Notes under the pieces: generated by a model
The model's input: only the letters and a program-made list of their open reading frames with translations
What the model was told of the DNA's origin: nothing
Database searches by the model: none
Shown: piece by piece, positions 3,378 to 61,387 of the stretch
Position numbering within the stretch: position 1 is the first letter of the stretch
How the letters are laid out: each line of letters opens with the position of its first letter
Position numbers and translations under genes: made by a program
Source: Patescibacteria group bacterium
Lineage (GTDB): Bacteria > Patescibacteriota > Minisyncoccia > Phycocordibacterales > XYD1-FULL-46-19
DNA length: 64,000 bases
Assembly: GCA_048617235.1 (NCBI GenBank)
Contig: JBMCHT010000003.1
Span: 17,958 to 81,957, forward strand
Direction: 5' to 3'

Positions 3378-3544
3378 TATAATCACCTCCTTTCTGGATC
3401 AGTGTTAACTAATCAGATAATATAATAAAATAATGTTTTAGTCAAATTTGATGAAGACTACAGAACGATTTCAGAACGAGGAAGTGGGTGGAATGCTTTA
3501 AGTATCCAGCGTTTACGCTTAATCAAATTGAGGTATTTTTACTT

Positions 3545-3585
3545 AGAATATAAAAAGAGCCGCCATCTCAAGATGACGGCTCTGG
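3545..3585 (-). terminator. Intrinsic terminator after pyrE
   Basis: On the minus strand: AGAGCCGTCATC-TTGA-GATGGCGGCTCT hairpin followed by TTTTTATATT, immediately 3' of the pyrE stop. Confidence 0.6.
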
Positions 3586-3598
3586 GTAGAGTCGCTCT

Positions 3599-5090: not shown

Positions 5091-5102
5091 GTAAATACGA
5101 TG

Positions 5103-5483
5103 TGGAGATGGCGGGAATCGAACCCGCGTCTGGTAAAGATTTAACAATTTCTCTACAGGTATAGTCTGTTTACAAGTTTTAAATCTAAACGGTTATTAAC
5201 AAACAAAATCCATTCAGATCGAGTTCCTTAATCTTAAACGTTAAGCAGAACCAATTAACGCTCCAGTTCGGTTTATATGACACCCATCAGATCCGGCCGA
5301 ACTCCTGATCAGATAGACGCCGGCTTAGGCTAAAGCGTAGGCCGGAGTAAAATACGGTGAAACCACCGATTTTACCTTTTGAGATAAGTTTGCACTTATA
5401 CAGTGTGTCGGAGTTTTTCGAGTTATCCGACATTCTCGACCTGCCAATTGCTAAAATCTACACCATCAAGGCCGATCATCCCC
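5103..5483 (-). ncRNA. ssrA: tmRNA (SsrA)
   Basis: Minus-strand transcript starts GGGGATGATCGGCC and ends GCGGGTTCGATTCCCGCCATCTCCA, the tRNA-like acceptor/T-arm halves. An internal reading frame ends ...P-A-Y-A-L-A-stop (GCC TAC GCT TTA GCC TAA), the classic tag ending. Located directly downstream of smpB. CCA not encoded. Confidence 0.8.
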
Positions 5484-7147: not shown

Positions 7148-8518
7148 TTAATCTAAAATCACCTTTTGTCCCGGATCGGGAGCTATAGCCTTAATTCCGA
7201 GATAATCGTTAATTCTCTGAGCTAAAGCCCAAGAAGATTTTGGCTCCCCCATAACCGTAAAAACAGTTTGGAGACTTTCAGTGGCCTCAGCTACTAAATT
7301 TAATAAACCGGCCGAATCGGCATGGGCTGAATAACCTGAAATAGTTTCTATTCTAGCCGCTACCGGCACTTCAGTACCTAAAATTTTAACCACCTTGACT
7401 CCATCTTGTAAAACTCTCCCTAAACTGCCGGCCGCTTGGTAACCAACCAAAAGCAGGGTATTTTTTTTATCCGGTAAAAACATTTTTTCATGATGAATAA
7501 TCCGACCACCATTGGACATACCGGAGCCGGCAATAATAATTTTACGAGCCGGAGCCGAAGCAATCGCTTTAGATTCATCAGTAGTCTTAGTTAAATGTAA
7601 TTGCGGAAAATGAAAAATATTTCTTTCAGTGGCCAGATCCTCAACTGATTCTTTTAAATAATTTTTATAACGACGATAAACTTCAGTCACCGCTATGGCC
7701 AACGGTGAATCCAAAAAAACCGGCACCAAAGGAATCTCCGACCGAGCCATTAAGCCGGAGATTTCAAAAAGTAATTGTTGTGTTCTTTCAATTGAAAAAG
7801 CCGGAATCATTAAAGTCCCCCCTTGATTTAAAGTTTCTTTAATTATTCTTTGTAAATGCTCTCGTCTATGTTGACGATCTTCATGTTCCCTGTCTCCATA
7901 AACACTTTCCATTATTAGATAATCAGCACCAACAACTGAATCGACATCCCCCAATAAAGGCGCCGGTGAGCTACCTAAATCTCCGGTAAAAAATATTCGA
8001 CGCTCAAAGCCTTCTATGGCAAAAATACTAGAACCCAAGATATGCCCGGCATTTTTTTGCTCCACTTCCAAACTGCCAATGGTAAATTTTTCATAATAGT
8101 CTTTGGTTTGCCATAAAGACATAGTTTGTTCCACATCCGCCAAAGAATAAAAAGGATCTTGACCGGTTCGTTTGGCTTCTTTAGACATCACCCCAATACT
8201 GTCTGTCATTATTAATTCGGCAATATCCTTAGTTGGCGGAGTAGATATAATTTGTCCTCGAAAACCATCTTTAACCAATTTGGGAATTCGGCCAACATGA
8301 TCCAAATGACCATGAGTGATTAATAAAAAATCTATAGTGGACGGATCATAAGGAAAATCTGCTCGGTTATCTTCTTCACAAACCTTGCCCCCTTGAAACA
8401 AACCACAGTCCACCAAAACCCGTAGCCCCTCCGGGCTTTCCAATAAAAAATTAGCCCCGGTTACCGAACCGACTCCGCCGTGAAAAGTTAAGGAAAATTT
8501 TTGCTTAGTGTTTTTCAT
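7148..8518 (-). CDS. MBL-fold metallo-hydrolase, beta-CASP family ribonuclease (RNase J / CPSF-like)
   Basis: HxHxDH motif (ITHGHLDHVGRIP) and FTGDLG. Length and C-terminal region fit a beta-CASP RNA-processing nuclease. Start set at MKNTKQ. Confidence 0.7.
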   Translation of the reverse strand: MKNTKQKFSLTFHGGVGSVTGANFLLESPEGLRVLVDCGLFQGGKVCEEDNRADFPYDPSTIDFLLITHGHLDHVGRIPKLVKDGFRGQIISTPPTKDIAELIMTDSIGVMSKEAKRTGQDPFYSLADVEQTMSLWQTKDYYEKFTIGSLEVEQKNAGHILGSSIFAIEGFERRIFFTGDLGSSPAPLLGDVDSVVGADYLIMESVYGDREHEDRQHRREHLQRIIKETLNQGGTLMIPAFSIERTQQLLFEISGLMARSEIPLVPVFLDSPLAIAVTEVYRRYKNYLKESVEDLATERNIFHFPQLHLTKTTDESKAIASAPARKIIIAGSGMSNGGRIIHHEKMFLPDKKNTLLLVGYQAAGSLGRVLQDGVKVVKILGTEVPVAARIETISGYSAHADSAGLLNLVAEATESLQTVFTVMGEPKSSWALAQRINDYLGIKAIAPDPGQKVILD

Positions 8519-8957
8519 TTTTAGCCGGTTGTTTATAAATATTAAAAGGGGTATACCAAAAAGCCAAGCCAGCAACCAAACCACCAACCGTATCCATAAA
8601 AAGATCGGTCACGGTATCCAACCAGCCCACTTGCAAAGTTTCCAGGGTTTTAAAAACAGGATAACCGGGCCAGATCTTATAGGCTCCGAATTCAAATAAC
8701 TCCCACAAGCCACCGATAAAAAAAGAAAAACCAACGGCTATTAACATTACAATTAAAAATTTAGGATAAACTTTATGGATATCAAAATAAAAAGATAAAA
8801 CGGCTGTAGCTACAGTCGCTCCGGCTATTAAATGGACTATTAAATCAAACCACCACCAACGCCAATATAAATAATATTCAAAAGCAAAATAATTAAGACC
8901 GGCCACCAATACCAGACCTAATAACACTCCCCACCAAACCGGTCTTTTAAATGTCAT
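8505..8957 (-). CDS. Hypothetical integral membrane protein (4-5 TM helices, Trp-rich)
   Basis: Hydrophobic helices throughout. No recognisable motif. Confidence 0.5.
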   Translation of the reverse strand: MTFKRPVWWGVLLGLVLVAGLNYFAFEYYLYWRWWWFDLIVHLIAGATVATAVLSFYFDIHKVYPKFLIVMLIAVGFSFFIGGLWELFEFGAYKIWPGYPVFKTLETLQVGWLDTVTDLFMDTVGGLVAGLAFWYTPFNIYKQPAKNEKH

Positions 8958-9198
8958 TAAAAGTATTTTAGACTATTAAATTATCTATCGCAAACAAATA
9001 ATCACCCAAGATCCGGGTATTTCAAACCAAATCAAGGATGATCATTTAAAGACTGCTTGGGATACTACCCTAGGATAAATCCAAGTGGGTGTCCGCAACC
9101 TTAAACCACGGCTTAAAGTAATATAGGACTCCCTAAGGGTAAAAACGATCTAGATAATATCCAAGCAGTCCATCTCCATTATACACCAAAAAAAATAT

Positions 9199-9594
9199 CT
9201 ACTCAATTCTGATCTGATGCAAAATTTCCTTAATTTTAACCAAAGCTTGACCGGGCATAATCTCGGTTTTTAACCAGTAATCAATAGCTCCTTTTTTAAT
9301 ATACTTATCTTTAATTCCTTCTTCATATAAATTACTTAAAATAACCACCGGCACATCTTTGGTATCTTTGTCTTTTTTTAAAAACTTCAACACTTGACCG
9401 CCATCCATTTCGGCCATTACCAAATCCAAAAGGATAATATCCGGCTCTCCGGCTTTGGCAATAGCCAAACCGTCTTGACCATTGGTGGCTATCATTAAAT
9501 CCACCGAATCATCCAAATCAAAAAGAGTTTTATAAATATGAACTTGATCGGGATCATCTTCAATTAAAAGAACTCTATCTAATAGTTTTTGCAT
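9199..9594 (-). CDS. Single-domain response regulator (CheY-like receiver)
   Basis: LLIEDDPD...ILLDLVMAEMDG...VVILSNL receiver signature. 131 aa, no output domain. Confidence 0.85.
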   Translation of the reverse strand: MQKLLDRVLLIEDDPDQVHIYKTLFDLDDSVDLMIATNGQDGLAIAKAGEPDIILLDLVMAEMDGGQVLKFLKKDKDTKDVPVVILSNLYEEGIKDKYIKKGAIDYWLKTEIMPGQALVKIKEILHQIRIE

Positions 9595-9598
9595 AAAA

Positions 9599-11800
9599 TT
9601 ATTGTACCAAAGGAAAACTTAAAATGAAAATGGAGCCTTGACCGGCTTCGGATTCAAAACTAATTTGACCTCCCGGCTGGGCTTCGGTTATTTTTAAAAC
9701 TATAAACAAACCCAAACCCGAGCCATCGGTGTATAAATCAACCGCTTGGCGGCCACGAGCAAATTTTTTAAATATTTTATCTTGATCCTCAGCCGGAATC
9801 CCAATTCCGGTATCGCTAATTTTTATCATAACCCTACCCTTATCTTCTGTTAAATCAACCGTTACTTGACCGACCGGTGTGTAAATTAAGGCATTATCTA
9901 TAACATAAGCCAGGGCTTGTTTTAGATAATCGGCATGAGCTTTAATCTTTAACTCCTCAGACGGTTTATTAAATACCAATTCCAAATCCTTATCTTGAGC
10001 TTTAGTTGAGTTGGCTTTAACCACCTCGGCAACCAAATTAACTACATCAACTACTGCCAAGCGTTCCTCCCCCAAAGAAAAATGCCCGCTATCTATTTCT
10101 GAAGCTAATAAAATATCTCGAATTATCTGTTCCAATTTCCTGGATTTATAATAAATATTATCTATAAATTGTTTTTGTTTTTCCGGCGGTAGTTTGTCTA
10201 TACTACCTTCTTTAAACATAGAAATGGTTCCCAAGATAACCGAAACCGGGGTTCGTAATTGATGAGAAGCAATATTTAAAAATTCCGAACGCATTTTTAA
10301 CAATTTTTCCAGATGTTTTGTTTTAGCTCGTAATTCCGATGTTTGTTCATCCACCCTCTCCTGTAGGGTTTGATTAAACAATCTAATTTGCTCATATAAT
10401 AAGGAATTATCTATGGCAATACCGGCCGAAGCCGCCAAGGTTTGCAGCAACATAATATCTTCTTGAGAAAAAGGATTGCCGGAAGCTTTCTCACCCAAGA
10501 CCACCAAACCCACCAAGCGCGAACCGGAGATTAAAGGCATTAAACCGGCGGCGGGTATTTTCTCCAGATTATTTTTCCAAATTTCCGCAGATTGACTGCC
10601 GTCGGCTATATCTTGTTGGTAATTAATTAGCTCATCAGCTATCAATATTTGATTATGTTTTTCCAAAAATTCTCTTGCAACTTGAGTAAAAACCAATTGT
10701 TTAATATTTAAATCCTCAGCTTCAAAATTAAGTTGGAAAACTTGATGATCTTTATCCGCCTCTTTATTTAAAATTATTAAACCAGCTTTGGTTAAATCAA
10801 ATTCCCTATAAACAGTTTTAACGATTAAATCCGCTATTTGTTGTAAATCATTAAGATAATTTAATTCTCGAGCCAAACGATTAACGGATTCTTGAACCGA
10901 ATATAAAGAAACAAAAAAATATTTATTGGCCCAATCTTGAATCAGATTATAGAAATTATATAACAGGAAAACAAAAAACGGAGCCATTAACAAACCGGTT
11001 AAATAGGAAGCCGGAGTAAAAATTCCACCAAAAAAATAAATATAAAACCAAGCTATTAAATAAAAAAGGATATAAGTAAAAGCAGCCGCCAGAACATATA
11101 AATAAAGCCGTCTGAAGACGACTCTAATATCCATTAAACGGTAACGGAGGATGGCGTAGGCGACCGCCACAACATAAAAAGAAACCAAGATATTACCTAT
11201 AGGTAAAATTGGGATATCATACCAAAGAAAATAATTAGTCGAACCACCGGTAAAACCCACTATCATTCCCACTAATAAATATTTTATCTGACTTTTCACT
11301 ACTCCGGATAGCCGAGAATGATATTTGAATAAATAATAAGTGGCCAGCACGACATAGCCAAACCAAATAGGTAAAAAAATATTGAATAAGATCCCGGGCA
11401 CCGGCCAGAAATCAAACATTGCTCTGGAAGTAATTCCCGTAATAAAATGATTACTAAATAAATTTAAAACTAAAAACAGAAAAAATAAAAAATAACTACC
11501 CAATATAAAAAGTTTATAACTTTTGTTTATTTTTAATAAAACAAATACAAAATGTAAGTAAGCTACCGAGATAAAAATAGCCCAACTCATAAAAAATCTA
11601 GACCAAAACAAAGCAGTTTGAGCATCGGTTGACAATTGCCAGAAAAAATAACCCAGACTCCAACCGGCTATCAAAAAAGAAAACAAAGCAAAAGTTATAT
11701 ATAAAAGACGTTTAGGATTACGCAATAAAACAAAAAAACCCAAAACCAAACTGGTAATGAAATTTATTAAAGCTGATAAGGTGTAAAAAGTAAACAACAT
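9599..11800 (-). CDS. Sensor histidine kinase (multi-TM N-terminal sensor, GAF, HisKA, HATPase_c)
   Basis: About 9 TM helices, a GAF-like middle region, H-box ASHQLRTPVSVI, G-boxes DTGIGIP...GSGLGL. Confidence 0.88.
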   Translation of the reverse strand: MLFTFYTLSALINFITSLVLGFFVLLRNPKRLLYITFALFSFLIAGWSLGYFFWQLSTDAQTALFWSRFFMSWAIFISVAYLHFVFVLLKINKSYKLFILGSYFLFFLFLVLNLFSNHFITGITSRAMFDFWPVPGILFNIFLPIWFGYVVLATYYLFKYHSRLSGVVKSQIKYLLVGMIVGFTGGSTNYFLWYDIPILPIGNILVSFYVVAVAYAILRYRLMDIRVVFRRLYLYVLAAAFTYILFYLIAWFYIYFFGGIFTPASYLTGLLMAPFFVFLLYNFYNLIQDWANKYFFVSLYSVQESVNRLARELNYLNDLQQIADLIVKTVYREFDLTKAGLIILNKEADKDHQVFQLNFEAEDLNIKQLVFTQVAREFLEKHNQILIADELINYQQDIADGSQSAEIWKNNLEKIPAAGLMPLISGSRLVGLVVLGEKASGNPFSQEDIMLLQTLAASAGIAIDNSLLYEQIRLFNQTLQERVDEQTSELRAKTKHLEKLLKMRSEFLNIASHQLRTPVSVILGTISMFKEGSIDKLPPEKQKQFIDNIYYKSRKLEQIIRDILLASEIDSGHFSLGEERLAVVDVVNLVAEVVKANSTKAQDKDLELVFNKPSEELKIKAHADYLKQALAYVIDNALIYTPVGQVTVDLTEDKGRVMIKISDTGIGIPAEDQDKIFKKFARGRQAVDLYTDGSGLGLFIVLKITEAQPGGQISFESEAGQGSIFILSFPLVQ

Positions 11801-11850: not shown

Positions 11851-12786
11851 CTATTCAACCTGCCCCACAGCTACGCCGTGAATTTTGTGCGGTTCGTAAA
11901 CCAGTCGAACCGACACAAAACCGGATCGAAGGAGGATTCTCGCCAAACGATCCGGCCAACGATAAATCATCGGCCAGTCAATCACTTGGTACAAGAACCA
12001 TCGCTCACTGTTGGGAGCAATGTTGCAGGTCAGGAAAACTCCCCCCGGCGGCAAGGCCGAGTGAATTTGACTCAGCAGTTTCTCCGCCTTGTCATCAGGC
12101 AGATAATCCAGCAACCCCATCATCTCTACGATGTGAGGAGCGAATTCCCGACTGATTTCCAAGACATTGGAAACCGTCTCCCGGCGAACCTCCACTTGAG
12201 AGGAAACACCGGAATCTTGAGCCAACCCTTGAGCAAAGTCCAGGGCTGTCTGGTCACGATCAACCAACAGCACTCGAACCGTTACCCCTTTGGCTTTGAA
12301 ATCTGCCACCGTCTTAATGACCGACTCCGCCGACCCGCAAGCTAGTGAGAGAATCCGAATTTCCGATTCCCGTCGAAATCGATTGACTGCCTCCGCCAGC
12401 TCGGCACAAGCAATTTTGTATCGATTGCGAACCGCCTGGGCGTTTCGCATACCGATCCAAAAATCGTCAACCAAATTTCCTGAGAAATCGTGGTTATAGA
12501 TCAAGTGAAGCGCCCTCCAAGAAGCCGCTCCTTGACGGATGGCTAAAGTCTTTCGACCCCAGCCATCAAACCACGAAGAATTATAGATCGGGGAACCCCA
12601 ACCCATAACCCTATAGACAGTCTTCTTGAAGAAAGTCACCAGCGCCAACACCATCATCACCGGAGCCACCAGATGAAACCAGAGACTCTGTTCAAACTCC
12701 AACCGATCGATTGGTCGAAGTTTTTCTCTTTTGACTTCCCTCACCGAACAATTCGGTAAGGAAGCCATTTCTAATTTATAAGACAT
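11851..12786 (-). CDS. Putative class I SAM-dependent methyltransferase with N-terminal TM helix, on GC-rich island
   Basis: Motif I-like ILSLACGSAE. GC-rich. SD GAGAGGAGG 6 nt before the internal ATG at 12786 (MSYKLEMASL); the ORF track begins at 12873. Confidence 0.5.
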   Translation of the reverse strand: MSYKLEMASLPNCSVREVKREKLRPIDRLEFEQSLWFHLVAPVMMVLALVTFFKKTVYRVMGWGSPIYNSSWFDGWGRKTLAIRQGAASWRALHLIYNHDFSGNLVDDFWIGMRNAQAVRNRYKIACAELAEAVNRFRRESEIRILSLACGSAESVIKTVADFKAKGVTVRVLLVDRDQTALDFAQGLAQDSGVSSQVEVRRETVSNVLEISREFAPHIVEMMGLLDYLPDDKAEKLLSQIHSALPPGGVFLTCNIAPNSERWFLYQVIDWPMIYRWPDRLARILLRSGFVSVRLVYEPHKIHGVAVGQVE

Positions 12787-12915
12787 AGGAGTCCTCCTCT
12801 CAAGGTTGGTTTTTTGTTGACAAACACCTAGACCACTTGAAGTATAACACATATTAAAAAATAAATCAAACAAAAGAAAAAGCGTCTATTGGTTACCCCA
12901 ACAAACGCTTTGAAA

Positions 12916-14067
12916 TCAAAAACTGAAAGACATGCCGACAGTCAAAATTTCCGAAGAAAATTTTACCCTCGGATGCCCGGCTCGAACCGAACCTTGGCCA
13001 TAAGCGACAAAAATTGACCGCTCAAGCTTTGATCCAATTTTTGTCAACTGAAAAGCCAAATTCCAACCGGACATATCGGGAATCAGGGTACTGACTCGAT
13101 TATCCGGCACCGCTTGAGTCATGTAATTCCAACCCAGACTCATTCGCCAGTTATCGTTCAGCTCTGCCTTCATTCCCAAGTGATATGTCCGATTGTCTTT
13201 CCAGCCCAAAGGTAAACCAATGGCCGGCAAACGATTAAAATCCAATCGCAATTCTCGATTACGACCGGAATAACCGTAATGAGCCCAATCAGCCAACAGG
13301 ATTATCCGAGGAGATATTCGGTATTCCAGTCCTACCTGGAGCCTATCAGGAAAAGTGTATTGGCTGTCAAACCGATCACTTATCCCTAAAGGTAGATTGG
13401 TCCGACCGGACAAGTTGGCAGTTTGAGTTGAAGTGTAAGAAAGCCCCAATCTCCATTGTGAAGACATTTGGTATTGCAATCCCACTTGCCAACCCAAACC
13501 AAAACCGATAGCCCCACTCTCGGCTTTTAACGGCCACCTAATGCCGGCTAACTCCAGCGGTGCTTCATAGACAAGCTCAGCTTGTCCGACATGAACAGTC
13601 AAACCCAAGGCCAAGCGTTGACTGGCTTGCCAACCAAAGCCGATTGAAGCATTTACCAGAGATAATTCAGACCTGGTATTCATGAACCACTGTTCGGGAT
13701 TTCTATCAAATTCCGCTCCCAAACCGTAAGGAACACAAATACCACCGGCCAAAACTAACCTATCCGTTAGTGGTAAAACCCCGGAAACAAAAGGTAGATC
13801 ATACGGTTCTCCCCCGGACCGACGATTACCCTTTTGACCTCGGTAATGAAAACGAGCATCAACTCGTTCCCATCCAACCATTAAAGCTTTTGATTGAGCT
13901 CCGGCCCAAGCAGCCGGATTGTAGTAGTGACCACCGAAAGGATCAGCAGTCGCCACATAAGCGCCACTGGTACCGATAGCCGGTCCCACTCCGCCTACTC
14001 GATTAAGCCCGCCGGCTTCAGCTATCATCGGGAAGATAGCCAAAACCAAAACTATCAAGAATCTCAC
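12916..14067 (-). CDS. Outer-membrane beta-barrel transporter, FadL/OmpP1/TodX family
   Basis: GTG start with SD AAGGAGAG. Signal peptide MRFLIVLVLAIFPMIAEA. N-terminal hatch with NPA motif (HYYNPAAWAG). Alternating amphipathic beta-strands. C-terminal ...GMSFSF aromatic terminus. GC-rich. Confidence 0.7.
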   Translation of the reverse strand: MRFLIVLVLAIFPMIAEAGGLNRVGGVGPAIGTSGAYVATADPFGGHYYNPAAWAGAQSKALMVGWERVDARFHYRGQKGNRRSGGEPYDLPFVSGVLPLTDRLVLAGGICVPYGLGAEFDRNPEQWFMNTRSELSLVNASIGFGWQASQRLALGLTVHVGQAELVYEAPLELAGIRWPLKAESGAIGFGLGWQVGLQYQMSSQWRLGLSYTSTQTANLSGRTNLPLGISDRFDSQYTFPDRLQVGLEYRISPRIILLADWAHYGYSGRNRELRLDFNRLPAIGLPLGWKDNRTYHLGMKAELNDNWRMSLGWNYMTQAVPDNRVSTLIPDMSGWNLAFQLTKIGSKLERSIFVAYGQGSVRAGHPRVKFSSEILTVGMSFSF

Positions 14068-47596: not shown

Positions 47597-50095
47597 TTAC
47601 CAATTTATTAAAGGTTTCCATTGATAATAATTATTTTTATTAGCAGCACATATATATACCTGATCAGCGGTTTCTCGTTCACCACTAACTAAATTATCTA
47701 AATATTTTATTGCCCCCTTATTTGCGCCAGTACACCTTCCTAACTCGTTTATAAGACCGTTTGATAGTGAACTTCTTTCTATTATAGGTAAAACTAATCC
47801 GGAAGCATCAGCCATATTTACTTTACCACCAAAATAAGATGTACCTTTTACATTAAACATACTCGGCCTTTTATCATCATTACTCTGATATCCTATACTT
47901 ACTTTTTTTTCTTCTATCTTAAGAGCTTCTAAATGAGGCCCATTCCAACCTGTACCGACATCATTTTTGTCTTTCGAGATAAAAGAAAATGAACCATTAT
48001 AATCAATCCAGGTACCTGCACGACCGGAGTTTATTGCCATTGCTGATCGATTATTTCTTATTAAAACACCATCACTATCACCAGCGACCCCTGTGTTTAT
48101 ATCTAACTTTTTTCTAGGATCCGTAGTCCCCATTCCTACATTTCCTTCTTCAGTCAAACTCATAACGATATGATGTCCAGCCTCATCATGTCTTGTAAAA
48201 TCTAAATTATTCGTTTTTAACTCAAATTCCCCAGAATCAGTTCCGCCACTAGTTTTTTTACTAACAGACCAATAATTTCTTTCTTCCCCATCTGTGCCCA
48301 TATTTTCTGATAAAACTAAAGCAGCAGAATTACCTGCAAAAGTAGTGGGATTTTTTTGAATTAAAACAAGATTTGCTCCTGAATTAACACTATCGTCTTC
48401 CCTAATAGTAAATTTAGGGACTGAACCATTTTTAAAAACACCTCTATCTTCTGCGTCACCACCAACTACTACAGAGCTACTTGGTTCTCTTGTATATAAA
48501 ACATCTCCTTCGTCTGTTTCATCTAGATCCCAAAAACTTTCTATTTGAGCAGCATTAATAATACTTAAGAATGAAGCACAGCTTGCACTAACACCATCTA
48601 AAATATCTAAAGTACATAATTGACCATTAAAAGAAGTCATAGAATTTCTATCTGCAGAAAAACCATCTGAACTTCCAAACATTTCAGCTTCAAAAGACAT
48701 CTCATCTTTGGAATTAAAAGTAAAACTTTTAAAATTACTTCCAGATATAAAAGAGTTATTTCCTCCTGTCTTAATTACTTTTATATCGGCTTCTCCAGAT
48801 CTTATTTCTCCATCACCAACTGCTAAATCACCTGCCACATCAACATTATCAAATAATCTTACATGACGAACACCATCCTGACGGACAGCTCCTACTATAT
48901 CTAAAACTTTATTTGTTCCTGTTAAAGGACTAACTCTAATAACTGATTTATCGCTACTCTCAGTAGCCCTATCTTCGTGTTGTATAACATTAATATCTCC
49001 AGATCTTATTTCTCCATCACCAACTGCTAAATCACCTGCCACATCAACATTATCAAATAATCTTACATGACGAACACCATCCTGACGGACAGCTCCTACT
49101 ATATCTAAAACTTTATTTGTTCCTGTTAAAGGACTAACTCTAATAACTGATTTATCGCTACTCTCAGTAGCCCTATCTTCGTGTTGTATAACATTAATAT
49201 CTCCAGATCTTATTTCTCTATCTATATCTAAAGCAAATTCTGGATTATTAACACCTATCCCCACATTACCATTTTCACGATAAATGTTACCATCTTCTGT
49301 TTCTTCCCATAAAGAACCGCCTACACCTTCTATGTCTTTAGGGTCTGTCCAAAAACCAATACCATCAACATCTGAAGTTAAAATTTTATTCTCATCAGGA
49401 TCCCCCCCTCTTATTCTTATTTGACCATCTATATCTAACTCAGCTTGAGGATTATCTGTTCCTATTCCAATTCTAGAATTTTCATCTTCTCCAGAAATAG
49501 TCATTCTGGTAATTGGACTAAAGCCTGTAGAACTACTAGAATCAACTACCATTTCTTTAAAATTTAAACCATCTTTTATCGGTAATAATATTTCTCCTAT
49601 ATAAGCTAAATCTGTATTCAAACTATCAGCTTTCACACCGCCATCTACATGTAATTTACTCGCCGGATCATTTGTTCCAATTCCCACATTACCGTTTTCA
49701 CGGTAAATATTGTCACCATCTTTTTCCCACAAAGAACCACCTAAACCTGGTATATCTTGAGGATCAGTCCAAGTAGCTTTTCCTTCATCGTTTACAGAAG
49801 TTAAAATTTTACCAGAACCAGCATTGCCTTTTTCGGGAAAATAAAATAATTCCAAAAAGCGACCTTTTGTAATTAACAAACTATCTCCTATAAACAATGG
49901 AGCCGAAATATATTTATTTGATCGAATACGTCCTTCCTTTGTTTGACCTTGACTCCCCGTATGTATCGGCGGTTCCGGTTGATCATTCGGAGGTGATTCC
50001 GGCGCCGGAGTAAAACTATAAACAGTAATAGTCGAAGCACCTAAAACAGTTATTGTTACCAAAAGATATAATCCCCAGTTTTTATATTTATTCAT
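47597..50095 (-). CDS. Large secreted or surface protein with tail-fibre-like repeats (GNVGIGT..P..L.V motifs)
   Basis: N-terminal signal anchor. Repeated GGSLWE..G.NIYRENGNVGIGTNDP motifs. Internal exact 68-aa duplication. 832 aa. Confidence 0.6.
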   Translation of the reverse strand: MNKYKNWGLYLLVTITVLGASTITVYSFTPAPESPPNDQPEPPIHTGSQGQTKEGRIRSNKYISAPLFIGDSLLITKGRFLELFYFPEKGNAGSGKILTSVNDEGKATWTDPQDIPGLGGSLWEKDGDNIYRENGNVGIGTNDPASKLHVDGGVKADSLNTDLAYIGEILLPIKDGLNFKEMVVDSSSSTGFSPITRMTISGEDENSRIGIGTDNPQAELDIDGQIRIRGGDPDENKILTSDVDGIGFWTDPKDIEGVGGSLWEETEDGNIYRENGNVGIGVNNPEFALDIDREIRSGDINVIQHEDRATESSDKSVIRVSPLTGTNKVLDIVGAVRQDGVRHVRLFDNVDVAGDLAVGDGEIRSGDINVIQHEDRATESSDKSVIRVSPLTGTNKVLDIVGAVRQDGVRHVRLFDNVDVAGDLAVGDGEIRSGEADIKVIKTGGNNSFISGSNFKSFTFNSKDEMSFEAEMFGSSDGFSADRNSMTSFNGQLCTLDILDGVSASCASFLSIINAAQIESFWDLDETDEGDVLYTREPSSSVVVGGDAEDRGVFKNGSVPKFTIREDDSVNSGANLVLIQKNPTTFAGNSAALVLSENMGTDGEERNYWSVSKKTSGGTDSGEFELKTNNLDFTRHDEAGHHIVMSLTEEGNVGMGTTDPRKKLDINTGVAGDSDGVLIRNNRSAMAINSGRAGTWIDYNGSFSFISKDKNDVGTGWNGPHLEALKIEEKKVSIGYQSNDDKRPSMFNVKGTSYFGGKVNMADASGLVLPIIERSSLSNGLINELGRCTGANKGAIKYLDNLVSGERETADQVYICAANKNNYYQWKPLINW
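48792..49199. repeat. Perfect tandem duplication, 2 x 204 bp, in-frame within the 832-aa surface protein gene
   Basis: Identical 204-nt units encoding IRSGDINVIQHEDRATESSDKSVIRVSPLTGTNKVLDIVGAVRQDGVRHVRLFDNVDVAGDLAVGDGE twice. A third, diverged partial copy follows. Confidence 0.9.
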
Positions 50096-50135
50096 AATTT
50101 TTTTGCCGATACATATTAATTTTTAATAATTTTTA

Positions 50136-50552
50136 TTATTGAGCTGTTTGATGTAATACTTCTTCAATTTCTTCATCGGTCATCGTTTCTTCAGCTGAAG
50201 TAGTTTCAGCCATTTGGCGTAATATTTCTTCAATTTCTTCATCAGACATCATATCTTCAAGAGAAGTCGTTTCAGCCATTTGGCGTAAGGCTTCCTTAAT
50301 TTCTTCTTGTTCTTCTTCAGTCAATTCTTCATTTTCCTCGTACATTTGACTTAGAGCTTCATCGATTAAGGCCTCTTCAGTCATTTCATCAGTGGTATCT
50401 ACCGGAGCTTCAACTTGATCTCGGCTTACCCAGGCCAAAACAGCCAAAACAATAATGGCTAATAAAATTACTCCGACCACTAAAGATAAAACCTTGTTTG
50501 GTCCACCTTGGTTATCGGTGGAATTAACTGTTTGATTCATTTCATTATCCAT
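50136..50552 (-). CDS. Acidic single-pass membrane protein with two ~22-25 aa repeats (EEIEEILRQMAETTS)
   Basis: N-terminal TM helix VLSLVVGVILLAIIVLAVLAWV followed by an Asp/Glu-rich repeated tail. 138 aa. Confidence 0.45.
   Translation of the reverse strand: MDNEMNQTVNSTDNQGGPNKVLSLVVGVILLAIIVLAVLAWVSRDQVEAPVDTTDEMTEEALIDEALSQMYEENEELTEEEQEEIKEALRQMAETTSLEDMMSDEEIEEILRQMAETTSAEETMTDEEIEEVLHQTAQ
50160..50290. repeat. Two imperfect ~63-66 bp tandem coding repeats
   Basis: TTCTTCAATTTCTTCATC...GTTTCAGCCATTTGGCGTAA occurs twice. Confidence 0.6.
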
Positions 50553-50788
50553 AAAATTTAATTTAAATTAATTTTAATAATACTTTTAGTTGCCCGCTTA
50601 AACAGACATAATAATCTAGACTTTATTTTACCAAAAAAAAGACCAATAAACCAAACTTTTTAACCCTTTCTGTTGATAACTTCCCGGCTTGGCTTTTTTT
50701 TATCTTTATGTTATCGTTAAATTGTCTGTAAGATGTATCCGGAAGCTAAAGCTCTCCGGATTTTTATTTAAAAAATAACAATATTATT

Positions 50789-51949
50789 ATGATAGATCTT
50801 AAAATGTTAAAATCCGCTCTGGAGCAATTGGAAGAAGAAAAAAATATTCCCCGAGAGCGAATTGTAGGAGCGATTGAAGATTCTTTAGTGGCGGCCTATA
50901 AGAAAGATTACGGTAAAAAGGGACAAATCATTAAAGCTAAAATAGATTTAGATACCGGTCAAACTGAATTCTATAAAGTAAAACTGGTGGTTGATGAGTC
51001 TACGGTCAGATTTGATGAGGAAGAACCCCTCAATGAAGAAGATGACAGAATTAAATTCAATGAGGAATCCCATATTACTCTAGAAGATGCCAAAAGAATT
51101 AAAACCAACATCCAAGTAGGTGAAGAAATTGTTTTTCCTTTGGATACCGAAGAAGACTATGGCCGGATTGCCGCTCAAACAGCTAAGCAAGTTATAATTC
51201 AAAAAATCCGAGAAGCGGAAAAAGACTCCATTTGGGAAGAATATTCCGGTCGTGAGGGAGAAATTTTATCCGGTAAAGTTCAAAAATTGGAAAGAGGTAA
51301 TGTCTATGTGGATTTAGGCCGAACTCTGGCTATTTTACCTTATGAAGAGCAAATCCGTGGTGAATATTACCGTCAAGGTGAAAGAATTAGAGCTTATTTA
51401 TACGAAGTGGAAGAAAGTCCCAGAGGAGTGGTTTTACGTTTATCTCGTTCTCATCCTAAATTTGTGGAAAAACTATTTGAAATGGAAGCTCCGGAAATTG
51501 CCGCTGGCACAGTGGAAATTAAAGCTATTGCTCGGGAAGCCGGTGGTCGAACCAAGATGGCTGTTTGGTCAGAAGATCCCAATATTGATCCGATTGGTTC
51601 TTGTGTGGGACAAAAAGGATCCAGAGTCTCAACAGTTATTAATGAATTGGGAGGTGAAAAAATAGATATTATAGAATGGTCATCCGATCCGGATCAGTTT
51701 ATCACCAATGCCCTGTCTCCGGCTAAAATTTTATCTTTGAACTTGGATGAAAAAGACAAAACAGCTCAAATAGAAGTTACGCCCGATCAATTTTCTTTGG
51801 CTGTCGGTCGTGGTGGTCAAAATGCTCGTGTCGCCGCCAAATTAACCGGTTGGAAAATAAATATTTCCGTACCCCCGGAAATGGCCGAAACCGAAGAACA
51901 AACTGAAGCCGTTTCCGCTGATCCGGAAACTGAAACAAATAATAATTAA
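50789..51949 (+). CDS. nusA: Transcription termination/antitermination factor NusA
   Basis: NusA N-domain, S1 and two KH domains. Acidic C-terminal tail. 386 aa. Confidence 0.92.
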   Translation: MIDLKMLKSALEQLEEEKNIPRERIVGAIEDSLVAAYKKDYGKKGQIIKAKIDLDTGQTEFYKVKLVVDESTVRFDEEEPLNEEDDRIKFNEESHITLEDAKRIKTNIQVGEEIVFPLDTEEDYGRIAAQTAKQVIIQKIREAEKDSIWEEYSGREGEILSGKVQKLERGNVYVDLGRTLAILPYEEQIRGEYYRQGERIRAYLYEVEESPRGVVLRLSRSHPKFVEKLFEMEAPEIAAGTVEIKAIAREAGGRTKMAVWSEDPNIDPIGSCVGQKGSRVSTVINELGGEKIDIIEWSSDPDQFITNALSPAKILSLNLDEKDKTAQIEVTPDQFSLAVGRGGQNARVAAKLTGWKINISVPPEMAETEEQTEAVSADPETETNNN

Positions 51950-51968
51950 TAGTTTAATCATTTATATT

Positions 51969-52505
51969 ATGGAAAATACCAATAATTTATGGCATCAAAT
52001 TCCGGCCGGAACACCGGAAGAAATAAATGTTATTACCGAGTCTCCTAAATTATCTCGGGTTAAATATGAATTGGACAAAGAGACCGGTTTAATTATAGTT
52101 GACCGAGTTTTGTATTCTCCAATGCATTATCCAGCTAATTATGGTTTTGTTCCCCAAACTCTGTGGGATGATGGTGACCCTTTGGATGTTCTGGTTATTT
52201 CACATGAACCGTTTGTCCCGGCTTCTTTGGTTAAAGCCCGACCAATCGGAGTTTTGGAGATGATAGATGACGGTGATAGTGACGCCAAAATCTTGGCCAT
52301 ACCGGTTAAAGATCCTCGCTTTAAACAAACCAATAATTTAACAGATGTAGAACCTCATATTTTGGAAGAAATCCAGCATTTCTTCAAAGTCTACAAAGAT
52401 TTACAGAAAAAAGAAGTTCGAGTGGGAGAATGGTTAGACAAAGAAGAGGCTCTTAAAACAATAGAAAAATCCCTCACTCAATACCGAGAAAAATATTCGG
52501 CTTAA
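51969..52505 (+). CDS. ppa: Inorganic pyrophosphatase (family I)
   Basis: DGDPLDVLV metal-binding motif. 178 aa. Confidence 0.9.
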   Translation: MENTNNLWHQIPAGTPEEINVITESPKLSRVKYELDKETGLIIVDRVLYSPMHYPANYGFVPQTLWDDGDPLDVLVISHEPFVPASLVKARPIGVLEMIDDGDSDAKILAIPVKDPRFKQTNNLTDVEPHILEEIQHFFKVYKDLQKKEVRVGEWLDKEEALKTIEKSLTQYREKYSA

Positions 52506-52613
52506 ATTAAATTATATAATCTAATTTTAATCCCCCGATCTTATGATTGGGGGATTTTAAATTTTAAAAATGAGAGTATAATTGGAATTATTAACATTCT
52601 AATTATAAATATC

Positions 52614-53168
52614 ATGTTTAAAATCATTTCAAGTATCATATTTTTATTAATTTTAAGTACCGGTTCCGCTTATGCCAAAACAACAGATACGACGCCAAAT
52701 ATTAATTCTATCACTGAACAAAAAAGAGAGATGACCAGTGACAGAAGTCAGATGAGAGAAGAAATTAAAAATCGTTTAAATGAAACAACTTCAGCTAAAG
52801 ATAGACAAGAAATGGCTAATCGTTTTAGATTGGAAGCTTTAAATAAAAAACAAGAAGCTATATTTACCAATCTGGAGCAGATAATAAACCGTTTACAAGA
52901 AGTTAAAAACCGTTTGGCTATACTAGCTGAAAAAGCTGGCCAAGCGACTAAAGCTGAAGATAACTTAACCGCTGTCGATGATCTAATTCAAATGGCTGAA
53001 ACTAATAAAAATAAAAATCAAAAAGAAATTAAGATATATTTAGAAGAAGAAGACTGGGAAAACAGTTTAGAAGCTCTTAAATTGGGAATTAAAAATATTA
53101 GAATGGATTTAGTTGAAACTCGACGTCTCTTGTCTCAATCTATTGCCTCTATCCGTCAAAACCTTTAA
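52614..53168 (+). CDS. Secreted coiled-coil hypothetical protein
   Basis: Signal peptide MFKIISSIIFLLILSTGSAYA. Highly charged helical sequence. 184 aa. Confidence 0.45.
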   Translation: MFKIISSIIFLLILSTGSAYAKTTDTTPNINSITEQKREMTSDRSQMREEIKNRLNETTSAKDRQEMANRFRLEALNKKQEAIFTNLEQIINRLQEVKNRLAILAEKAGQATKAEDNLTAVDDLIQMAETNKNKNQKEIKIYLEEEDWENSLEALKLGIKNIRMDLVETRRLLSQSIASIRQNL

Positions 53169-53266
53169 AGATATAAATATTAACTATAATAAGTTGAAAT
53201 TATTGTTATTTAGTATTATCATTTAATCAGAAGAACTTCGTCCTTTGCCAACCAAAAAAAGACCTT

Positions 53267-53277
53267 GAAAGGAGGTC
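53267..53277 (+). promoter_or_regulatory. Strong Shine-Dalgarno (GAAAGGAGGTC) 5 nt upstream of the ATG of the GC-rich ORF
   Basis: Perfect AAAGGAGG core. Native neighbouring genes lack SDs. Confidence 0.6.
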
Positions 53278-53280
53278 AAA

Positions 53281-54342
53281 ATGCGACTGGTAACTGCAAC
53301 TTTCCTTTTTTGGGGGGTGATGATGGTGGCGCTGGGACAACCCGGGCAATACACCGAGTTTGCCCCGGAACTCCTCGAAGAGGGGCGCGATTTTGTCGTG
53401 CTCCGGACGGAAGACTCGTCAGTGAAAGTCTTTCGTGAAGTGGAGGATTACTTCGGACCCGACTCCCGACTGTCTAATGGTCTTTATGACCTGAAGACCA
53501 AGGGAGCCACGACCTCGCCCTGTTTCAACGGCGGGCCAGCTATGTACTACGAGCACATTTTCAACGGTGCAGCCGTTGATAACTGGCGCTCAGAGTACGC
53601 TCCTGAGTTGAATGATCAGATCTTCACCGATCTGACAAACAACTCGGTCAAGGTGGTCTGGCCGAGAGCAACCTCCTTGTGGAACCTCAGGTCCAGCATC
53701 ACCTATGAGTTAGGTGATGACGGGGTAGACTTCACCTTTGAAGTCAAAACTCCGGCCACAGAGGCAGAAGTGGCCGAGATTGCCCCGTTGGGATGGTTTG
53801 GGTGTATGTTCGCAAGCTACACCCGTTCCATTCATAGCTCCGACAGGAGCTTCCAATTCTATGGGGTGGAATCCCAGGTCATGGATTTCCGCTGGTTCCA
53901 AGTCTCCATTCCCAACTTCGGCTGGAAAAAGTTTGGAGACTCAAAGGAAAGAGGAACTATCGGGCCTTACAGGGTTGATCCCCTTCCGTACGAAGAAGAG
54001 GCTGGCGGCATAAACGCACATCAGAGGGAGGATCTACACAGTCTCTCCCCAATGTACTTCAGTGTCGTACAGCCCAACGAGGGCTCACCGCCGATGATAT
54101 TTGCCATGCTTTTCGACCAGACACAGTCTGTTCGATTTGCATTGTTCGGAGGAGATGAGTTAGGCGGTCCCACCGCCTACGACTGGCACTTCATCGTCCG
54201 GCAGCCCCAGCCAGATACGAAGTATCGACTGAGGGCGAAGCTCATCTATGAGCCTCTACCGGAAGAAGGGATGTCCGAGCGTAAATTACGTTCGTATATC
54301 CAACAAAAGTGGTTTTGGTGGTGGTGGTTTCTCCACCATTAA
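53281..54342 (+). CDS. Secreted hypothetical protein on GC-rich island (C-terminal aromatic tail KWFWWWWFLHH)
   Basis: Signal peptide MRLVTATFLFWGVMMVALG. 353 aa. GC-rich with strong SD and its own terminator. No family recognised. Confidence 0.55.
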   Translation: MRLVTATFLFWGVMMVALGQPGQYTEFAPELLEEGRDFVVLRTEDSSVKVFREVEDYFGPDSRLSNGLYDLKTKGATTSPCFNGGPAMYYEHIFNGAAVDNWRSEYAPELNDQIFTDLTNNSVKVVWPRATSLWNLRSSITYELGDDGVDFTFEVKTPATEAEVAEIAPLGWFGCMFASYTRSIHSSDRSFQFYGVESQVMDFRWFQVSIPNFGWKKFGDSKERGTIGPYRVDPLPYEEEAGGINAHQREDLHSLSPMYFSVVQPNEGSPPMIFAMLFDQTQSVRFALFGGDELGGPTAYDWHFIVRQPQPDTKYRLRAKLIYEPLPEEGMSERKLRSYIQQKWFWWWWFLHH

Positions 54343-54365
54343 ACCGTTTCTGTGTTTTTGTTCTC

Positions 54366-54395
54366 AACCCCGTACTTTCTAGGTACGGGGTTTTC
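54366..54395 (+). terminator. Intrinsic terminator (AACCCCGTAC-TTTCTA-GGTACGGGGTT + TTTT)
   Basis: Perfect 10-bp stem followed by a T-run, 24 nt after the stop of the GC-rich ORF. Confidence 0.7.
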
Positions 54396-54506
54396 TACTC
54401 TGTAAAAATTAAACGATGTAGATATTAACGGTCAAGCCTGGTCAAAAAAAACAAAATCAGGCATAATAGAAAAAGATTAAATTATTAGTTTAAGCTTTTA
54501 TAAATT

Positions 54507-54848
54507 ATGGAAGAAAAAGATTTCAATCAAAATGAAAATCCAACAAATACGGACATGGGGGTTCCCGAGCAATCGGCTTCCGTCGGTTCTCCGGAGGACA
54601 ACTCCAAAGGTCCGGTTGTTGGAATTGTTTTGATTATCATCATCCTCATTGTCGGAGGTATCTTCGTTTTCACCAACCGAGAAGAAATTTTGGAACCGGT
54701 GGAAGAAGATGTTGAAGATATAGCAAATGAGGAAGATATGGAGGAATTAGAAAATGATATTTCAGACTTGGAAGAAATCGATGAAAATATCGATACTCAA
54801 ACCCAAGAACTGGAAGATGAATTGGATATTATTTCCGAAGAGGAATAA
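54507..54848 (+). CDS. Acidic single-pass membrane protein
   Basis: TM helix VVGIVLIIIILIVGGIFVF followed by a Glu/Asp-rich tail. 113 aa. Confidence 0.45.
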   Translation: MEEKDFNQNENPTNTDMGVPEQSASVGSPEDNSKGPVVGIVLIIIILIVGGIFVFTNREEILEPVEEDVEDIANEEDMEELENDISDLEEIDENIDTQTQELEDELDIISEEE

Positions 54849-54950
54849 TTTTCCGATGTTTTCAACAAAAGCCGGCTTCAAAGCCGGTTTTTGTTTGTTT
54901 TATTTAAAAAAATTTGCCAAATTAAACAAATCCAGTTACCCTAATTCTAT

Positions 54951-60788: not shown

Positions 60789-60879
60789 AAATATTTTGTT
60801 AGTTAATTATTATTGATTCCTATTTAATTTATATCATCAATCAATAAATATTTCCAGTTTTGATAAAATCTTAATTCGG

Positions 60880-60952
60880 TCGGGCTGCCGGGATTCGAAC
60901 CCGGAATCACACGAACCCGAATCGTGTATGTTAGCCGTTACACTACAGCCCG
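60880..60952 (-). tRNA. tRNA-Pro (anticodon CGG)
   Basis: Cloverleaf with anticodon stem CACGA/TCGTG and loop TTCGGGT (G37). T-arm CCGGG-TTCGAAT-CCCGG. Confidence 0.8.
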
Positions 60953-60960
60953 AATAATTA

Positions 60961-61034
60961 ATGGTCGGGGTACCCGGAATCGAACCGAGGCCACACCCAC
61001 CCCATGGGCGCATACTACCACTGTACTATACCCC
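60961..61034 (-). tRNA. tRNA-Pro (anticodon GGG), CCA encoded
   Basis: Cloverleaf with anticodon stem CGCCC/GGGTG and loop ATGGGGT. T-loop TTCGATT. 3'-ACCA encoded. Confidence 0.7.
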
Positions 61035-61107
61035 GAATTCAACAATACCAAAATAGCACAAAAGATTTATTTGTGCATTCCAACAAAAACATATAAAATA
61101 AAAACTA

Positions 61108-61120
61108 GAAAGGAGGTGAT
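61108..61120 (+). promoter_or_regulatory. Strong Shine-Dalgarno GAAAGGAGGTGAT 4 nt before the ATG of a small ORF
   Basis: Perfect anti-SD complement, unlike the SD-less native genes. Confidence 0.55.
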
Positions 61121-61123
61121 CCT

Positions 61124-61387
61124 ATGCTTAAATATTTGCCGGTGCCGATCATTAAAAAAGTTGTTTTCGGCCCCCGTCATTGCAGAATTGAACATATGGG
61201 AAAATTGGGAAACAAAAAACGCATAAAAATCAGCCTGGATCCGGATATTTATAATGGCTTGGATCCTATATGGTTAATTTTGAGTATTGGTTCCCGAATT
61301 CGTTTAATTGACTCAATTGGTATTGATCAACAAACCATAAAAAAGGTTAAAAAAATCCTTACCAACTATAACCGCCAACAAACATAA
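61124..61387 (+). CDS. Small hypothetical protein (87 aa) with strong SD
   Basis: ORF MLKYLPVPIIKKVVFGPRHCRIEHMGKLGNKKRIKISLDPD... No family recognised. Confidence 0.4.
   Translation: MLKYLPVPIIKKVVFGPRHCRIEHMGKLGNKKRIKISLDPDIYNGLDPIWLILSIGSRIRLIDSIGIDQQTIKKVKKILTNYNRQQT

Follow-up and report, generated by a model that had tools for sequence, protein, structure and literature searches.

How does a GC-rich gene come to stand among the AT-rich native genes of a Patescibacteria genome, and what might its product do? This question is raised by an open reading frame (ORF) of 353 amino acids (aa) at positions 53281–54342 (+) of a 64,000-nucleotide stretch of contig JBMCHT010000003.1 (assembly GCA_048617235.1), subsequently designated the window, whose gene content includes ftsH, tmRNA, a ribosomal protein operon, type IV pilus-type genes, nusA, ppa, tig, clpP and rny. 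The initial annotation, made from the letters alone, had described a GC-rich ORF with a strong Shine-Dalgarno (SD) sequence, a signal-peptide-like N-terminus and a Trp tail, all of which are present as described, the N-terminus being judged by inspection. Likewise, the neighbors are those given there: upstream a secreted protein of 184 aa with coiled coils, downstream an acidic membrane protein of 113 aa, after which tig follows.

We consider the whole to be best explained, with a probability of about 0.6, by a recent-looking horizontal gene transfer (HGT) of a single gene, which encodes an exported glycan-related protein of the supersandwich fold. In this scenario a fragment of ~1.15 kb (roughly 53240–54400) would have been imported into a variable slot between ppa and tig, carrying its own SD-bearing leader and probably also its own terminator. 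The product would be a Sec-exported, single-domain protein of ~330 residues from a family residing mainly in glycan-degrading diderm phyla, and is predicted to form a mutarotase-like supersandwich with a conserved C-terminal helix as cap. Most likely, it would bind or help to process extracellular polysaccharide or glycan, and in an epibiotic cell of the Candidate Phyla Radiation (CPR), devoid of an outer membrane, it would act at the cell's own surface or on host-derived glycans. The ORF with its signals, its foreign composition, the family with its predicted fold and GH5 fusions, and the continuity of the assemblies are directly shown, whereas we infer that the protein is exported and binds glycan, that the gene is expressed in the present host, and what kind of donor it had.

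Foreign origin of the 353-aa gene, already claimed by the initial annotation, is supported by its third codon positions, its dinucleotide signature, its SD use and the phyletic distribution of its homologues. The ORF has a GC content of 0.529 (0.542, 0.418 and 0.627 at codon positions 1, 2 and 3, respectively), compared to 0.381 for the window. Over 70 greedily selected, non-overlapping window ORFs, the median GC content at third codon positions (GC3) is 0.30 with a median absolute deviation (MAD) of 0.026, which places the 353-aa ORF (GC3 of 0.63) more than 12 MAD out, and the only further outliers lie at 3111–4929 and 11851–14067. Together with the 353-aa gene (island 3), these correspond to the GC-rich islands noted initially and are subsequently designated islands 1 and 2. 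GC content climbs at ~53240 and is back at the native level by ~54400, and the intergenic DNA on both sides is AT-rich and native-like. With a dinucleotide distance (δ*) to the host of 211, island 3 lies beyond the 95th percentile of the host's own values (153), and relative synonymous codon usage (RSCU) of the 353-aa gene correlates with that of the host at r = −0.20.

The SD sequence of the gene is GAAAGGAGGTC at 53267–53277. The spacing of five nucleotides to the ATG reported for it holds for the AGGAGG core, whereas only three nucleotides separate the full 11-mer from the start codon. Taken as GAAAGGAGGT, the SD covers 53267–53276 and lies 4–5 nt ahead of the ATG, and the longest SD match in the entire window, AAGGAGGT with a spacing of 4, is likewise the one preceding this ORF. 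Using naive start calls, SD matches of at least 5 nt were detected for 5/6 island ORFs but for only 2/64 native ORFs. The island count rises to 6/6 once the start of the island-2 methyltransferase gene is corrected to the ATG at 12786, which has GAGGAGG ahead of it, and by the looser GGAG/GAGG criterion a single one of 61 native ORFs scores. In a count independent of start calls, hexamers resembling an SD also preceded long ORFs elsewhere in the window, but nearly all of these proved to be gene-internal. Inspection of the regions upstream of native genes, e.g. those at 50789, 51969, 54951 and 55989, revealed plain AT-rich DNA essentially without SD sequences. No 16S rRNA gene is located in the window. 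As the native genes essentially lack SD sequences, in agreement with the anti-SD loss reported for Parcubacteria, about half of which have no detectable anti-SD motif (PMC9297842), the SD can be regarded as a mark of the donor, and this element of the proposed foreign signature was confirmed. The second element, possession of an own terminator, had to be abandoned: native genes end in strong hairpins as well (52529–52556 and 54864–54895), and therefore a terminator does not mark a donor.

The strong SD also bears on the start of the protein. The GenBank record begins it at Met14 (53320; 340 aa), thereby losing the predicted signal peptide, whereas the 353-aa form is the gene call, with identical protein, in assembly GCA_964402165.1 and in the Logan SRR11308339 contig. 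In an exact protein look-up the 353-aa version was matched, the 340-aa GenBank version was not. The NCBI entry with the identical sequence is annotated as hypothetical and stems from a metagenome-assembled genome (MAG) labelled "Patescibacteria group bacterium". Because the ATG at 53281 is supported by the SD and is called by another assembly, the 353-aa start is to be preferred, and the GenBank start is a probable annotation error. The N-terminus, MRLVTATFLFWGVMMVALG followed by Q (residues 1–20; 53281–53340), exhibits by inspection the n-, h- and c-regions of a predicted Sec signal peptide, and the mature protein would then start with QPGQ. It can be written as MR plus LVTATFLFWGVMMVALG, in which A-L-G precedes the Q; the aligned place in the homologue has A-S-A before Q, and the closest homologue reads MKRLVVMLVMSVGCACAEKASA followed by QP there. 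The Kyte-Doolittle 12-mer maximum of this segment is 2.1, and the structural model described below has low confidence in this part. An N-terminal hydrophobic segment is present in 86/149 family members.

Which organisms carry relatives of this protein? No match was obtained for the query in Pfam, NCBIfam, PHROGs, PADLOC or PDB sequences, the latter searched with both the single sequence and a profile. A word-indexed search of 5.8 billion proteins returned the query alone and, with a profile, five further unnamed proteins. Exhaustive phmmer searching of 1.84 billion cluster representatives (clusters at 50% identity) yielded 70 relatives, 43 of them at E ≤ 1e-10. The closest relative (P0002; 40% identity) has the same architecture as the query. 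It is encoded on a 9-kb contig of ~51% GC, and its true start lies 15 nt farther upstream; the gene has an AAGGAG SD and a terminator of its own, and the protein has a signal peptide ending in ASA followed by QP and matches the query in the length of its C-terminus. Scanning of GTDB species genomes with a 7-sequence alignment detected 113 relatives of at most 33% identity, almost all in non-CPR genomes, only one MAG being CPR-labelled. They are found chiefly in Latescibacterota, Hydrogenedentota, Gemmatimonadota, Planctomycetota, Verrucomicrobiota, Nitrospirota-type MAGs, Poribacteria and Calditrichota. A functional name was available for none of the family members in the sources looked up, and a full-text literature search for secreted supersandwich proteins without assigned function returned nothing relevant.

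The majority of relatives stand alone and measure ~300–350 aa. The domain common to them corresponds to query residues ~65–330 (53473–54270), which are predicted to form a β-supersandwich modelled mostly at a predicted local distance difference test (pLDDT) score above 90 and contain the motifs YEHIFNG, MFASY and AYDWHFIVRQP. The family motifs FEHIFNG, MWASY, PAWDWQ[FY]I[IV]R.P and YGYRAR are all recognizable in the query, and W134, A178, Y180, G195, W215, P257 and F278 are invariant in the family alignment. In Latescibacterota, Gemmatimonadota and Chloroflexota-labelled MAGs (loci L002, L004–L011, L014–L017 and L022), a 302-aa member is accompanied by a convergent neighbor of ~628 aa, which is conserved and lacks a Pfam match, often with a TPR protein upstream; this arrangement is a possible conserved module. 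Locus L095 carries two copies of the family (214–1245 and 8224–10176), one of which is fused to an Ig-like surface domain.

A gene of foreign composition with relatives in other phyla and a sharp GC step at its borders might also result from an artefact of assembly or binning, i.e. a chimeric join or contaminating DNA. The Logan SRR11308339 contig, which covers window positions 49189–54562, indeed breaks at 54534–54562 (29-nt overlap of two contigs), ~140 nt 3' of the island, a further point that could be counted for an artefact. However, this break falls within the native 113-aa gene, which suggests a graph branch or a strain variant. Both junctions of the island are 100% identical in three assemblies, namely the 167-kb NCBI MAG contig, the 336-kb contig of GCA_964402165.1 and the Logan contig, and native genes and AT-rich native-like intergenic DNA flank the island on both sides within one contig. 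Since three assemblies share the junctions and the break lies inside a native gene, off the island boundary, we regard an artefact as highly improbable.

For the site of insertion, a distant relative is informative: locus L086 (274–6379; Tig 34% identical) has nusA, a pyrophosphatase gene, tig and clpP in this order and lacks the three small genes that are present here between ppa and tig. As the backbone is kept in the absence of these genes, this suggests that the ppa-tig interval is a variable slot. The pyrophosphatases of the two loci differ: by eye, the L086 protein (667 aa) is of the membrane type, while the counterpart in the window is a soluble protein of 178 aa. Two ideas on the integration were tried and rejected. 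The flanking segments 53159–53184 and 54404–54429 are 77% identical to each other but share an exact core of only 8 nt in AT-rich DNA, as expected by chance. An integron cassette was dismissed, as there is no integrase and the perfect stem downstream of the gene is unlike attC, judged from the known attC structure without a dedicated attC model. Genes of the type IV pilus type (T2SSE/T2SSF ATPase and platform, pilins) are located ~6–10 kb upstream of the 353-aa gene. As pili and competence genes have been proposed as a DNA uptake route in Patescibacteria (PMC12455944), the gene might, by analogy, have entered in this manner. HGT into Patescibacteria is documented, including individually transferred genes (PMC12455944), and the present case resembles these genes and islands in its foreign composition, the streamlined CPR genome and the absence of mobility genes. 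However, the transfers described there are mostly old and occurred among Patescibacteria, whereas the 353-aa gene is unameliorated, belongs to an overwhelmingly non-CPR family and carries an SD in an SD-less host.

To what kind of protein does the family belong? Remote homology searching and structure prediction, the checks proposed in the initial annotation, provided ~70 relatives and a confident supersandwich model. The AlphaFold2 model, computed from the family alignment, has a mean pLDDT of 86.3 and a predicted TM-score of 0.85 and shows a β-supersandwich of ~18 strands plus a C-terminal helix. Comparison with the PDB by Foldseek gave 37 matches at E ≤ 1e-3. Those listed are dominated by aldose-1-epimerases/mutarotases (3nre with E of 2e-7, 2cir, 1l7k, 3dcd and 3q1n; probability of 1.0), and further listed matches include supersandwich domains of glycoside hydrolase (GH) families GH36, GH97 and GH94, of polysaccharide lyase (PL) families PL17 and PL33, and the P1 domain of YidC. 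A viral structure library returned one match at this threshold, a GH65 protein. Thus, the model places the family clearly in the galactose-mutarotase-like supersandwich fold class, with kinship at the superfamily/fold level only. The initial statement that there is no recognizable domain still holds for sequence libraries, in which nothing was matched, but not for the protein as such, which represents an unannotated family with a confidently predicted supersandwich fold and recurrent fusion to GH5.

These fusions were found in 16/150 relatives, in which the domain directly follows the GH5 (cellulase-family) catalytic domain on its C-terminal side. They originate from Hydrogenedentota and Nitrospiraceae-labelled MAGs; the query itself is stand-alone. 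Genes neighboring those of relatives encode, among others, sulfatases (4), a pectate-lyase-like protein, GH109, a DUF5696/GH101-like protein and GFO/IDH/MocA oxidoreductases. The fold, the GH5 fusions and these neighborhoods taken together point to an extracytoplasmic role in carbohydrate binding or processing, and we would predict that the protein binds or processes glycans at the cell surface.

Members of the mutarotase-like superfamily such as E. coli YphB (3nre), L. lactis GalM (1l7k) and yeast Ymr099c (2cir) possess the same all-β supersandwich of ~270–300 residues and are the best Foldseek matches of the query family (E of 2e-7 to 1e-5, probability of 1.0). In contrast to them, the query family is predicted to be exported and has an additional conserved C-terminal helix, and no sequence similarity is detectable between the two. 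The fold class is also shared by non-catalytic supersandwich domains of carbohydrate-active enzymes (CAZymes), i.e. the N-domains of GH36, GH97, GH65 and GH94 and the β-sandwiches of PL17 and PL33, and the position C-terminal to GH5 observed in relatives is also that of carbohydrate-binding modules (CBMs) appended to GH5. Unlike such CAZyme modules, the query and most relatives stand alone with a signal peptide only, and no Pfam or NCBIfam model covers the domain. YidC P1 (PDB 3bs6, 3blc) is likewise an exported supersandwich of similar size with a C-terminal helix and reaches a target-normalised TM-score of up to 0.54. However, P1 interrupts a membrane protein, while the query is predicted to be soluble and stand-alone, and the two have no sequence similarity.

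The protein might alternatively be read as a stand-alone catalytic supersandwich, epimerase/mutarotase-like or lyase/hydrolase-like, rather than as a binding module. The aldose-1-epimerase family supplies the top Foldseek matches (3nre, 2cir, 1l7k), most members stand alone at 300–350 aa, and there is strong conservation of residues with polar or aromatic side chains (E/H in FEHIFNG, D301-W302, YRAR). In GalM, the sugar pocket contains a catalytic His/His/Glu(Asp) constellation. In the query family, however, E90 and H91 are not invariant, as members with MERIFNG, FEFTLNG or FQHLLSG exist, and the aldose 1-epimerase model PF01263 gave no match at E ≤ 10 for either the query or 18 family members, nor did a PDB profile search. 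Moreover, mutarotases are normally cytoplasmic, whereas this family is predicted to be exported, and the place C-terminal to GH5 is typical of accessory modules. The galM gene adjoins galK in gal operons, and in one non-CPR genome (L094, 10001–12495) a family member is indeed located 66 nt upstream of a galactokinase gene, but this adjacency is a single case. We consider an enzyme of this kind clearly less likely than the binding role.

Several points weigh against an imported gene for a glycan-related supersandwich protein and account for the limited confidence that we place in it. TM-scores to solved structures range from 0.36 to 0.52 with large root-mean-square deviations, and Pfam, NCBIfam and PDB profile searches provided no sequence-level link to any characterised family. 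Many other fusions of the domain are to TPR, Ig-like or InlB-type repeats, which are not CAZymes, and relatives share no conserved operon, their 145 neighbor genes falling into 104 clusters. With regard to transfer, the search for a close sister genome free of the island was unsuccessful (34% identity for the best Tig relative), and therefore insertion is deduced rather than observed. There is no integrase or transposase among the called genes within ~10 kb, no tRNA or significant flanking repeat, and no PHROG match. The three assemblies may have been built from the same or overlapping reads. Finally, the SD would be a useless relic if the host ribosome lacks the anti-SD, expression in this host being presumed.

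This last point leads to a further reading, by which the gene is a recent passenger, either silent or of no use in this host, and awaits decay. Its composition is unameliorated, it is known from one population only, and the FadL-type outer-membrane barrel of island 2 would likewise find no membrane to insert into, in a lineage thought to lack an outer membrane. The host genes are SD-less, and some Parcubacteria are reported to have lost the anti-SD (PMC9297842). Against decay, the ORF is intact and full-length, retains all family-invariant residues, ends at the same codon as its closest homologue and has a promoter-like site upstream. In addition, DNA of no use should soon be lost from a streamlined CPR genome. 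On balance, passenger DNA appears to us a minority explanation, about as probable as a catalytic function of the protein.

Where did the imported gene come from? The initial annotation had suggested a common donor or mechanism for the three islands, and a common donor is not supported by the data. RSCU of island 3 correlates at 0.47 with that of island 1 (pyrE/pyrF) and at −0.01 with that of island 2. Island 3 is distinct from the background by dinucleotide and codon usage, as had been supposed for all three, but the composition of island 2 does not set it apart from the host (δ* of 121, RSCU r = 0.66). The named relatives of the island-2 methyltransferase (PF12147) are almost only from Patescibacteria, at 40–53% identity, so that island 2 is CPR-type DNA with a methyltransferase gene typical of Patescibacteria. 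No genes of island 1 or island 2 were found alongside family members in 0.9 Mb of related loci.

Island 1 (3111–4929, −) is located beside tmRNA (5100–5483) and comprises pyrF (orotidine monophosphate decarboxylase, 234 aa), an overlapping gene for a pyrE-like phosphoribosyltransferase (209 aa), a 91-aa ORF and two hairpin terminators. A strong SD precedes each of the three, and GC3 is 0.54–0.65. It would supply a CPR cell with a route from orotate to uridine monophosphate. Island 2 (11851–14067, −) encodes a FadL/TodX-family outer-membrane β-barrel of 383 aa (Pfam Toluene_X, E of 5e-27) and the PF12147 S-adenosylmethionine-dependent methyltransferase, whose real start is the ATG at 12786 and whose codon usage is close to that of the host. 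The outer-membrane transporter is odd in this setting, a lineage thought to be without an outer membrane.

A link between islands 2 and 3 is nevertheless seen in their leaders. The leader of the 353-aa gene (53246–53280, +) contains, besides GAAAGGAGGT, the 14-mer ACCTTGAAAGGAGG (ACCTTGA[A/G]AGGAGG), which occurs exactly only at 53262 and at 12793–12806 (−), in the leader of the island-2 methyltransferase gene. Upstream of the SD the two leaders are identical at 21/30 positions (P of about 1e-4), local alignment gives z = 5.6, and the shared pattern TTG[CT]CAAC.AAAAA...ACCTTGA[AG]AGGAGG spans 53246–53280 (+) and 12787–12830 (−). This likeness may go back to a convention of a common donor or to the copying of a regulatory region. 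It could also indicate that the immediate donor was another, GC-richer and SD-using Patescibacterium, the source of islands 2 and 3, the family having reached the CPR earlier from diderms. Besides the leaders (z = 5.6; 21/30), the nearly exclusive occurrence of named methyltransferase relatives in Patescibacteria fits such a donor, and in a rough neighbor-joining tree the query and P0002 fall in a small subclade with a member from a Saccharibacteria-labelled MAG (L068). Most HGT into Patescibacteria originates from other Patescibacteria (PMC12455944). The leader similarity and the subclade thus make transfer via an SD-using Patescibacterium possible. However, islands 2 and 3 show no correlation in codon usage (r = −0.01) and are unlike in GC3 (0.42–0.55 versus 0.63), and the contig of P0002 (L093) is not assignable as CPR or non-CPR by SD use, coding density or similarity to window proteins. 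Furthermore, another member of the subclade resides in a clearly non-CPR genome, and the tree is crude. We therefore consider this origin doubtful and place it below the passenger and enzyme readings.

Another strong SD was noticed ahead of an 87-aa ORF at 61106–61387 (+), which adjoins tRNA-Pro genes at 60878–61035 (−). It is the perfect extended SD AGAAAGGAGGTGATCC, and its 14 nt are identical to those ahead of the 91-aa ORF of island 1. Although its GC content is low by eye, this ORF at a tRNA locus may be a fourth small foreign gene.

The Trp-rich C-terminus had been taken as a potential membrane or cell-wall anchor. The tail KWFWWWWFLHH is encoded at 54307–54339, QQKWFWWWWFLHH at 54310–54339 and W344–W349 at 54310–54327. 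It forms part of a C-terminal α-helix (residues 333–353; 54277–54339), modelled at residues 333–352 with a pLDDT of ~96. The query tail KWFWWWWFLHH* is codon-for-codon colinear with RWAMWRISLRQ* of P0002, keeping W344, W347 and L351, and K343-W344-x-x-W347 of the query corresponds to the family helix motif [EK][YW]xxW. As the two tails are colinear and of the same length, the query tail is no product of read-through or frameshifting and no added module. WWWW occurs in none of the 149 other family members examined, and five tail positions have turned to W or F, plausibly via slippage at TGG repeats. By sequence comparison, the tail is thus a lineage-specific aromatic variant of the C-terminal helix of the family and no dedicated anchor.

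Could the tail yet function as an interfacial membrane, cell-wall or glycan anchor, holding the exported protein at the surface? Trp prefers membrane interfaces and stacks on sugars, and WFWWWWFL is a run of eight consecutive aromatic/hydrophobic residues unique in the family. The tail residues point to all faces of the helical wheel, and therefore some are solvent-exposed. However, the length and alignment of the tail match P0002, W344, W347 and L351 occupy conserved helix positions, the helix is modelled as confidently packed, and the (TGG)4 run resembles codon-repeat slippage. Inspection of the tail for surface-anchor signals identified no LPXTG, PEP-CTERM or type IX secretion system C-terminal domain motif, and its eight hydrophobic residues are too few for a transmembrane span, which takes at least 18. 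The anchor claim is therefore not sustained, and we rate an anchoring function as improbable, more so than the donor just discussed.

The fold class and the phenomenon of HGT are already known, and current understanding is not overturned by this gene. Of the initial interpretation, foreign origin stands, whereas the common donor, the anchor, the terminator as a mark and the lack of a recognizable domain, as they had been put, do not. What is of interest is the undescribed GH5-associated family and the contrast in SD use between imported and native genes. The family forms at least 70 clusters when grouped at 50% identity, occurs in over 110 GTDB species and has no Pfam, NCBIfam or PDB sequence coverage. 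Given its confidently predicted fold and recurrent GH5 fusion, it is a concrete candidate for a new carbohydrate-binding or carbohydrate-active family. The gene would also be an unusually clean case of a single imported gene that has not ameliorated in a streamlined Patescibacteria genome; recent cross-phylum gains in Patescibacteria are described as rare (PMC12455944). The SD-less natives and strong-SD imports bear on how foreign genes are expressed by CPR ribosomes reported to lack the anti-SD. Carried furthest, the domain would be an undescribed carbohydrate-active module, CBM-like or catalytic, partnering GH5, and an epibiotic CPR bacterium would have captured a stand-alone copy with a unique poly-Trp helix in order to hold on to or remodel glycans on the surface of its host, translating it in an SD-less background. 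We hold this extended version to be speculative and rather unlikely; if true, the gene would offer a natural experiment on whether CPR ribosomes initiate with or without the aid of an SD.

Further signals surround the coding sequence. A candidate promoter, TTGAAA-17-TATCAT, lies in AT-rich intergenic DNA at 53194–53222 (+), 58 nt 5' of the ATG, and with 10/12 matches is joint-best of the region. It is regarded as a candidate only, because such matches are not enriched over shuffled sequences (8 versus 6.1 expected). Downstream, the perfect hairpin with T-run placed by the initial annotation 24 nt behind the gene begins 23 nt past the stop codon (54366–54392, +). It consists of AACCCCGTAC-N7-GTACGGGGTT followed by TTCT, with arms at 54366–54375 and 54383–54392 complementary at 10/10 positions, and RNAfold extends the stem to 12 pairs. 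Its perfect stem is borne out, but the T-run (GGGGTTTTCT) is short, with four U and then C, and a consensus terminator scan did not list the site. A second RNA hairpin (54314–54343, +) pairs the (TGG)n Trp codons with CCACCA of the His-His codons across the stop codon. It has 11 pairs and belongs to the minimum free energy structure, the whole 121-nt region having a z of −5.2; it may be incidental to the TGG repeat.

Farther upstream, the window encodes an 832-aa protein (47597–50095, −) without Pfam match and with a very low GC3 of 0.16. Its gene contains a 204-bp tandem repeat of 2.1 copies and 99% identity at 48792–49222, and in assembly GCA_964402165.1 a gap of 100 N at this repeat splits the gene.

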